In this document: in pieces, positions 17,133-17,250 of the stretch | Layout of the letters: every line of letters starts with the position of its first letter | Position numbering within the stretch: the stretch's first letter is position 1 | Origin: Escherichia coli | GTDB taxonomy: Bacteria > Pseudomonadota > Gammaproteobacteria > Enterobacterales > Enterobacteriaceae | Direction: 5' to 3' (one strand) | DNA: 64,000 nucleotides | Assembly (NCBI RefSeq): GCF_003334305.1 | Contig: NZ_QOWS01000005.1 | The notes under the pieces: generated by a model | What the model was told of the DNA's origin: nothing | The model's database searches: none | What the model saw: only the letters and a program-made list of their open reading frames with translations | Position numbers and translations under genes: made by a program

Positions 17133-17177
17133 ATGAATGCTGCTATTTTCCGCTTCTTTTTTTACTTTAGCACCTGA
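17133..17177 (+). CDS. pheM: pheST operon leader peptide ([14 protein letters not shown])
   Basis: 14-codon ORF with 5 Phe codons, directly upstream of an attenuator hairpin and pheS. Confidence 0.85.
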
Positions 17178-17225
17178 ATCCAGGAGGCTAGCGCGTGAGA
17201 AGAGAAACGGAAAACAGCGCCTGAA

Positions 17226-17250
17226 AGCCTCCCAGTGGAGGCTTTTTTTG
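17226..17250 (+). terminator. pheST attenuator (leader terminator)
   Basis: gcctccc-agt-gggaggc stem followed by a 7-T run, between pheM and pheS. Confidence 0.8.

Follow-up and report, generated by a model that had tools for sequence, protein, structure and literature searches.

The pheM leader of Escherichia coli: in silico recovery of a ribosome-mediated attenuator upstream of pheST and its conservation among Enterobacterales

We analyzed a 64,000-nt stretch of Escherichia coli DNA from contig NZ_QOWS01000005.1 (RefSeq assembly GCF_003334305.1), referred to here as the window; all positions are given in its coordinates. The segment at 17133–17250 is almost certainly the leader pheM, which controls the pheS–pheT (phenylalanyl-tRNA synthetase) operon as a classical ribosome-mediated transcription attenuator. 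A classic ribosome-stalling attenuator had been proposed at this site in an earlier note written from the letters alone, and the genomic context, a match to an Rfam family, the presence of mutually exclusive pairings, conservation and the literature all agree with that proposal. We found nothing that contradicts the attenuator model. The feature is the known pheM leader and attenuator, annotated in public genomes, and holds no new biology. It serves only as a positive control: a reader without tools correctly picked out a textbook attenuator in the bare letters, and the steps of the analysis recovered the three-state switch together with its conservation.

The original description is reportedly that of Fayat, Springer and colleagues (J Mol Biol, 1983–1985). 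Comparison with the published pheST attenuator, which the earlier note had suggested as a check, came out in its favor: the literature describes pheM/pheST as controlled by attenuation (PMC5371410, PMC3831192, PMC1262725). More specifically, PMC5371410, citing Trudel et al. 1984, presents hisL and pheM as attenuation-sensing peptides for which there are two alternative structures; a reporter built on the pheMST attenuator has been put to use (PMC3831192, citing the site-directed mutagenesis of Mayaux et al. 1985), and pheST has been named a classical attenuator of the gamma-proteobacteria (PMC1262725). In vivo, read-through is reported to respond to charging of the cognate tRNA (Trudel et al. 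1984; Mayaux et al. 1985; cited through PMC5371410 and PMC3831192).

Locus, leader peptide and candidate promoter

The list of open reading frames (ORFs), together with RefSeq annotation on E. coli DNA of 100% identity, gives the gene order thrS–infC–rpmI–rplT–pheM–pheS–pheT–ihfA around the leader (Table 1). Between rplT and pheS lies the ORF of a 14-residue peptide, which runs in the same direction as both genes. The same 45 bases carry the RefSeq label "pheM: pheST operon leader peptide PheM" (WP_001386830.1) in 100%-identical E. coli chromosomes, and the 125 bases equivalent to 17127–17251, between rplT and pheS, are labeled "Phe leader region." A match to the leader was present in every complete E. 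coli genome searched (5426/5426). The Rfam covariance model Phe_leader (RF01859) aligned to 17127–17251 (+) along its full length (model positions 1–125 of 125) with a score of 75.0 bits (E = 9.6e-12); we asked for a score at or above the curated gathering score of the family, which is 55 bits.

The earlier note had described a 14-codon ORF with five Phe codons, too short for the ORF track, followed about 50 nt later by a GC-rich hairpin and a run of seven Ts. Translation of 17133–17177 (+) gave just such an ORF, and the ORF lister had a minimum length of 20 aa. The T7 run occupies 17243–17249, and the distance from the pheM stop codon, which ends at 17177, is 48 nt to the G+C-rich core of the hairpin (17226) and 45 nt to the full stem (17223). 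The leader has two of the features by which we judged an attenuator: a short ORF, predicted to be translatable and rich in codons for the regulating amino acid (Phe in 5 of 14 codons), and an intrinsic terminator between this ORF and the first structural gene. The AAGGTAACGCAAGCA(A)TG block in front of pheM, which contains the Shine-Dalgarno AAGG region, is at least 90% conserved in relatives.

Upstream of the ORF, the segment at 17066–17094 is, judging by its conservation, the likely promoter of pheM–pheST. Across 79 distinct Enterobacterales sequences, ATTGAC(T/A) at 17065–17071 and TTTTCAATA at 17087–17095 are conserved 5' of pheM and their surroundings are not. A strict consensus promoter scan made no call at the pheM promoter because the –10 element has T, not A, at position 2. 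Transcription would start near 17101. The terminator hairpin that belongs to rplT, itself conserved, lies at 17020–17044, upstream of the conserved promoter block. In one MAG (Enterobacteriaceae bacterium UBA7338) the upstream alignment has the –35/–10 block apparently missing between the rplT terminator and the pheM Shine-Dalgarno sequence, which may be a real deletion or an artefact of assembly or alignment.

Further features were noted elsewhere in the window. By the RefSeq annotation of identical DNA, infC starts with ATT at 15765–15767. ATT is the known unusual start codon of this gene, which encodes IF3, and it is the reason why the ORF lister shows only a shorter GTG ORF at 15873–16307. 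The Rfam family STnc540 (RF02082, an enterobacterial sRNA) matched 21092–21250 (+) with 67.4 bits against a gathering score of 38; the match overlaps ihfA at its 3' end, together with the ihfA terminator, and lies 5' of btuC. Finally, a 632-aa ORF at 11411–13309 (–), upstream of thrS, corresponds in an identical-locus genome to the type III effector gene espL1, which is marked there as a pseudogene with an internal stop.

Table 1. Features of the pheM–pheST region, in window coordinates
Feature	Position	Strand	Details and basis
Candidate pheM–pheST promoter	17066–17094	+	–35 TTGACT 17066–17071, 17-bp spacer, –10 TTCAAT 17089–17094
Shine-Dalgarno-like AAGGU	17118–17122	+	10–11 nt 5' of the pheM ATG; read from the sequence
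pheM leader peptide ORF	17133–17177	+	14 codons plus TGA; by translation
Region 1, 5' strand of the protector helix	17142–17176	+	overlaps the Phe codons; MFE of the free leader
Phe codons of pheM	17148–17168	+	five: TTC 17148, TTC 17154, TTT 17157, TTT 17160, TTT 17166; by translation
Region 2, 3' strand of the protector helix	17181–17218	+	5' part, 17183–17196, doubles as 5' strand of the antiterminator
Antiterminator (2:3)	17183–17232	+	folding of nascent RNA with ribosome mask
Intrinsic terminator (3:4)	17223–17249	+	stem 17223–17232/17237–17246, loop CAGU, T7 run
pheS, phenylalanine--tRNA ligase alpha subunit	17461–18444	+	ORF list; RefSeq annotation of identical DNA
pheT, phenylalanine--tRNA ligase beta subunit	18459–20846	+	ORF list; RefSeq annotation of identical DNA
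ihfA	20851–21150		follows pheT; ORF list; RefSeq annotation of identical DNA

Alternative structures and their dependence on ribosome position

The free leader, taken from the inferred start near 17101 to 17251, folded into a protector helix followed by the terminator (MFE –57.9 kcal/mol). The protector helix pairs 17142–17176 with 17181–17218 over ~31 bp in five stacked segments; it was recovered by RNAalifold on 74 sequences and is the outer helix of the Rfam model. Its 5' strand, region 1, consists of bases that a ribosome stalled on the Phe codons covers. The terminator stem has 10 pairs, of which five are G-C, in the terminator scan, and the same hairpin appears in the MFE structure and as the terminal hairpin of the Rfam model. 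Its folding energy is –14.5 kcal/mol and the probability of its stem in the free full-length leader is 0.997.

The antiterminator joins GGAGGCU (17183–17189) to AGCCUCC (17226–17232), AG (17190–17191) to CU (17221–17222) and GCGU (17193–17196) to GCGC (17217–17220), with a folding energy of –17.0 kcal/mol that makes it more stable than the terminator hairpin. Seven bases are common to the antiterminator and the terminator stem, and the other strand of the antiterminator is common to the protector. Because the strands are shared, protector, antiterminator and terminator are mutually exclusive in the classical 1:2 / 2:3 / 3:4 manner. The earlier note had asked for RNA folding of alternative pairings, and had named a lack of mutually exclusive hairpins as the outcome that would tell against its reading; the three exclusive structures exist, and the alternatives are kept in 74/74 distinct orthologous leaders.

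Equilibrium folding of the complete leader was tried as an attenuator test and rejected: the terminator formed in every state, even with the ribosome mask (P 0.79–1.0), and equilibrium folding is unsuitable as a test because attenuators act co-transcriptionally. Since the terminator is favored at equilibrium in all states, the decision must be kinetic and co-transcriptional, as is expected of attenuators. We therefore folded the nascent RNA instead, up to 17236, a point at which the terminator has its 5' arm but not yet its 3' arm. The ribosome was represented by a mask reaching from –15 to +12 relative to the first base of the A site.

When the mask was placed on F6, F8, F9, F10, Y11 or F12, the antiterminator was the MFE structure of the nascent RNA, and 17227–17232 were paired with a probability of 0.92–1.00 across these placements. 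Without a ribosome, or with one placed at the UGA, the protector (or what remained of it) stayed in place and AGCCUCC (17226–17232) was mostly unpaired (P(paired) 0.02–0.57); pairing of AGCCUCC to the post-stop segment was absent from the nascent RNA in both of these states. In silico, then, the antiterminator shares bases with the terminator and its formation is set by the position of the ribosome. As a chance control, the 45-nt spacer at 17178–17222 was replaced by dinucleotide-preserving shuffles, and the three-state behavior arose in five out of 300 (1.7%).

These structures suggest how the switch would operate. Transcription would begin at the promoter just 3' of the rplT terminator, and a ribosome would translate the 14 codons of the leader before RNA polymerase has finished transcribing it. 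Given ample Phe-tRNA(Phe), the ribosome would reach the UGA (17175–17177) and cover GGAGGCU (17183–17189); if the leader is not translated, the long protector helix would form, with the same outcome. AGCCUCC (17226–17232) would in both cases be left free to pair with GGAGGCU at 17237–17243 as the terminator, and the polymerase would halt within the T7 run. Under a shortage of charged tRNA-Phe, the ribosome would stall on one of the five Phe codons and hold region 1 single-stranded. Region 2 would be freed in this way, so that its GGAGGCU (17183–17189) could capture AGCCUCC before the 3' arm of the terminator exists, giving read-through into pheS and pheT. We infer the coupling to tRNA-Phe charging, the transcription start and the pausing from established knowledge and the cited literature.

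Conservation, competing explanations and the variable spacer

Orthologous leaders were collected by a scan for the PheS protein, with one genome per species, which gave 80 Enterobacterales loci that span Escherichia, Salmonella and Citrobacter through Erwinia, Pantoea, Yersinia, Dickeya, Serratia, Hafnia and Edwardsiella. A leader ORF of 13–15 codons was present in 78 of the 80 loci; the upstream flanks of the other two were too short to contain it. The same number (78/80) had the peptide core FR-F-(F/S)-F-(Y/D)-F, which reads FRFFFYFS in nearly all loci, with few variants (FRFSFYFS, FRFFFDFS and FRFFFYFN). In 74/74 distinct leaders the first Phe codon and the stop codon that follows are exactly 27 nt apart, and the terminator arm GCCUCC follows the stop by 49–54 nt in all 74. 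Overall, the 125-nt leader is nearly constant in length and sequence across the Enterobacterales loci.

The switch is conserved along with the peptide. The 74 distinct leaders, which came from 78 genomes, were folded one by one and alignment-free, with sequence anchors for the terminator arms. The terminator had a probability of at least 0.96 in the free full-length RNA of all 74. With the ribosome stalled at F10, pairing of GCCUCC to the post-stop segment was at least 0.5 in 74/74 leaders and at least 0.8 in 70/74; with the ribosome at the stop codon, antiterminator pairing was at most 0.01 across the 74, and with no ribosome the GCCUCC/post-stop pairing was at most 0.1 in 71/74. In 62/62 evaluable distinct leader segments (of 72) the antiterminator had the lower folding energy (–16.4 to –23.8 versus –12.6 to –16.6 kcal/mol for the terminator hairpin).

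Covariation was assessed with RNAalifold on a MAFFT alignment. The protector helix was recovered with a few compensatory changes (for example, UA:34, UG:33 and CG:7 at one pair). The AGCCUCC arm was out of register in many rows of the alignment, making the pair counts for the terminator unreliable, and they were not used for covariation. The GCCUCC/GGAGGC core is nearly invariant, that is, conserved without compensatory change, so covariation support for the core of the terminator and antiterminator is weak; an invariant core is as expected for a strand that pairs with two partners.

The strongest competitor to attenuation, and a very improbable one, is that the leader helix mainly gives RNase III access to the pheST mRNA and thereby determines its stability, with attenuation secondary. 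RNase III cleavage within the pheM termination structure has been reported, with cleavage in vitro, 5' RACE ends and a downstream message that decays faster in the wild type than in an rnc mutant (PMC5371410). One published site, MG1655 coordinate 1799278, is just 5' of the pheM ATG and corresponds to ~17125 in the window (PMC5371410), and the modeled ~31-bp protector helix (17142–17218) is plausibly an obvious double-stranded substrate. However, a stability element explains neither why the Phe codons are conserved and the stop-codon distance is fixed nor why there is an antiterminator, and the same study treats cleavage as a layer added to a known attenuator (PMC5371410).

Still less probable is that the hairpin and T run form an intrinsic terminator free of regulation, or a remnant from the rplT terminator region, behind a Phe-rich mini-ORF that arose by chance. 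Short ORFs are abundant, T-rich sequence readily yields Phe codons, and the Shine-Dalgarno sequence of the pheM ORF is only modest. Chance would nevertheless have to account for a peptide core, frame and stop position that stay constant in 78 loci, down to the 27-nt interval noted above in 74/74 leaders. Moreover, rplT has a conserved terminator of its own upstream of the promoter block, the spacer encodes a switch that few shuffles reproduce, and the Phe_leader model matched above its gathering score. The conservation data have already refuted this explanation in practice. The least credible proposal, that uncharged tRNA (T-box-like) or a protein binds the leader directly and sets read-through in place of a translating ribosome, draws on the many aminoacyl-tRNA synthetase genes in Firmicutes that use T-boxes (PMC1262725), but the Rfam covariance models matched no T-box or other riboswitch family in 13000–22000 even at E ≤ 1, the leader is only ~150 nt long and has no specifier-loop architecture, and the conserved run of in-frame Phe codons argues for translation as the sensor.

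Far more variable than the ribosome-mediated attenuator is the spacer that separates it from pheS, which ranges from 39 to 365 nt among 78 loci and looks like a tolerated landing site for insertions. In the window, this part of the read-through leader contains a 145–147-nt palindromic dispersed repeat at 17270–17416, with 16-nt terminal inverted repeats at 17274–17289 and 17399–17414. As RNA the repeat folds into one long hairpin (–60.8 kcal/mol, z-score –5.8). RefSeq carries no annotation of the repeat at 17270–17416, which may be a member of the "RSA/BEE95" family, a name that occurs in the literature. It is present at the pheS site in ~88% of the 5426 complete E. coli genomes and absent there from ~645 (~12%), as well as from all non-Escherichia loci; in strain M7424, which is without the repeat, the distance from the leader region to pheS is 64 nt versus 209 nt. 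E. coli genomes carry one to eight copies (median five), with six in K-12.

This polymorphic insertion is a small side observation on how the 5' leader of an essential operon varies in nature. It seems unlikely, though conceivable, that the repeat is non-neutral and that its hairpin (~–61 kcal/mol) forms a second, lineage-specific control point on the pheST mRNA, for example, as an entry site for decay by RNase III or other means, or through an effect on pheS translation. If that were true, strains with and without the repeat would set their phenylalanyl-tRNA synthetase levels differently.

Comparison with known systems

The closest relative is pheM of E. coli K-12 MG1655 (b1715), which has the same peptide (WP_001386830.1), the same position between rplT and pheS and the same 125-nt leader DNA as the window. 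The spacing from the pheM stop to the pheS start is also the same within a base, with 283 nt between the coding sequences in both. The 147-nt downstream repeat differs at ~2 positions (98.6% identity), and we saw nothing else of substance. At the level of the RNA family, RF01859 covers the pheA leader (pheL) too, and by our reading of the consensus line its consensus peptide looks pheL-like. Both the outer helix that spans the Phe codons and the terminator hairpin at the end are common to the window and the family; of the two small inner hairpins in the model, one is absent from the window, in a part with low posterior probabilities.

The trp attenuator (trpL) is the textbook case of the 1:2 / 2:3 / 3:4 model, and the comparison draws on established knowledge. 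Like trpL, pheM has its regulatory codons in region 1, a mutually exclusive antiterminator and terminator, and superattenuation in the absence of translation. The protector helix of pheM (~31 bp) is much longer than that of trpL and is an RNase III substrate (PMC5371410). Finally, pheM senses Phe through five codons, whereas trpL has two Trp codons, and pheM controls a tRNA synthetase whereas trpL controls a biosynthetic operon.
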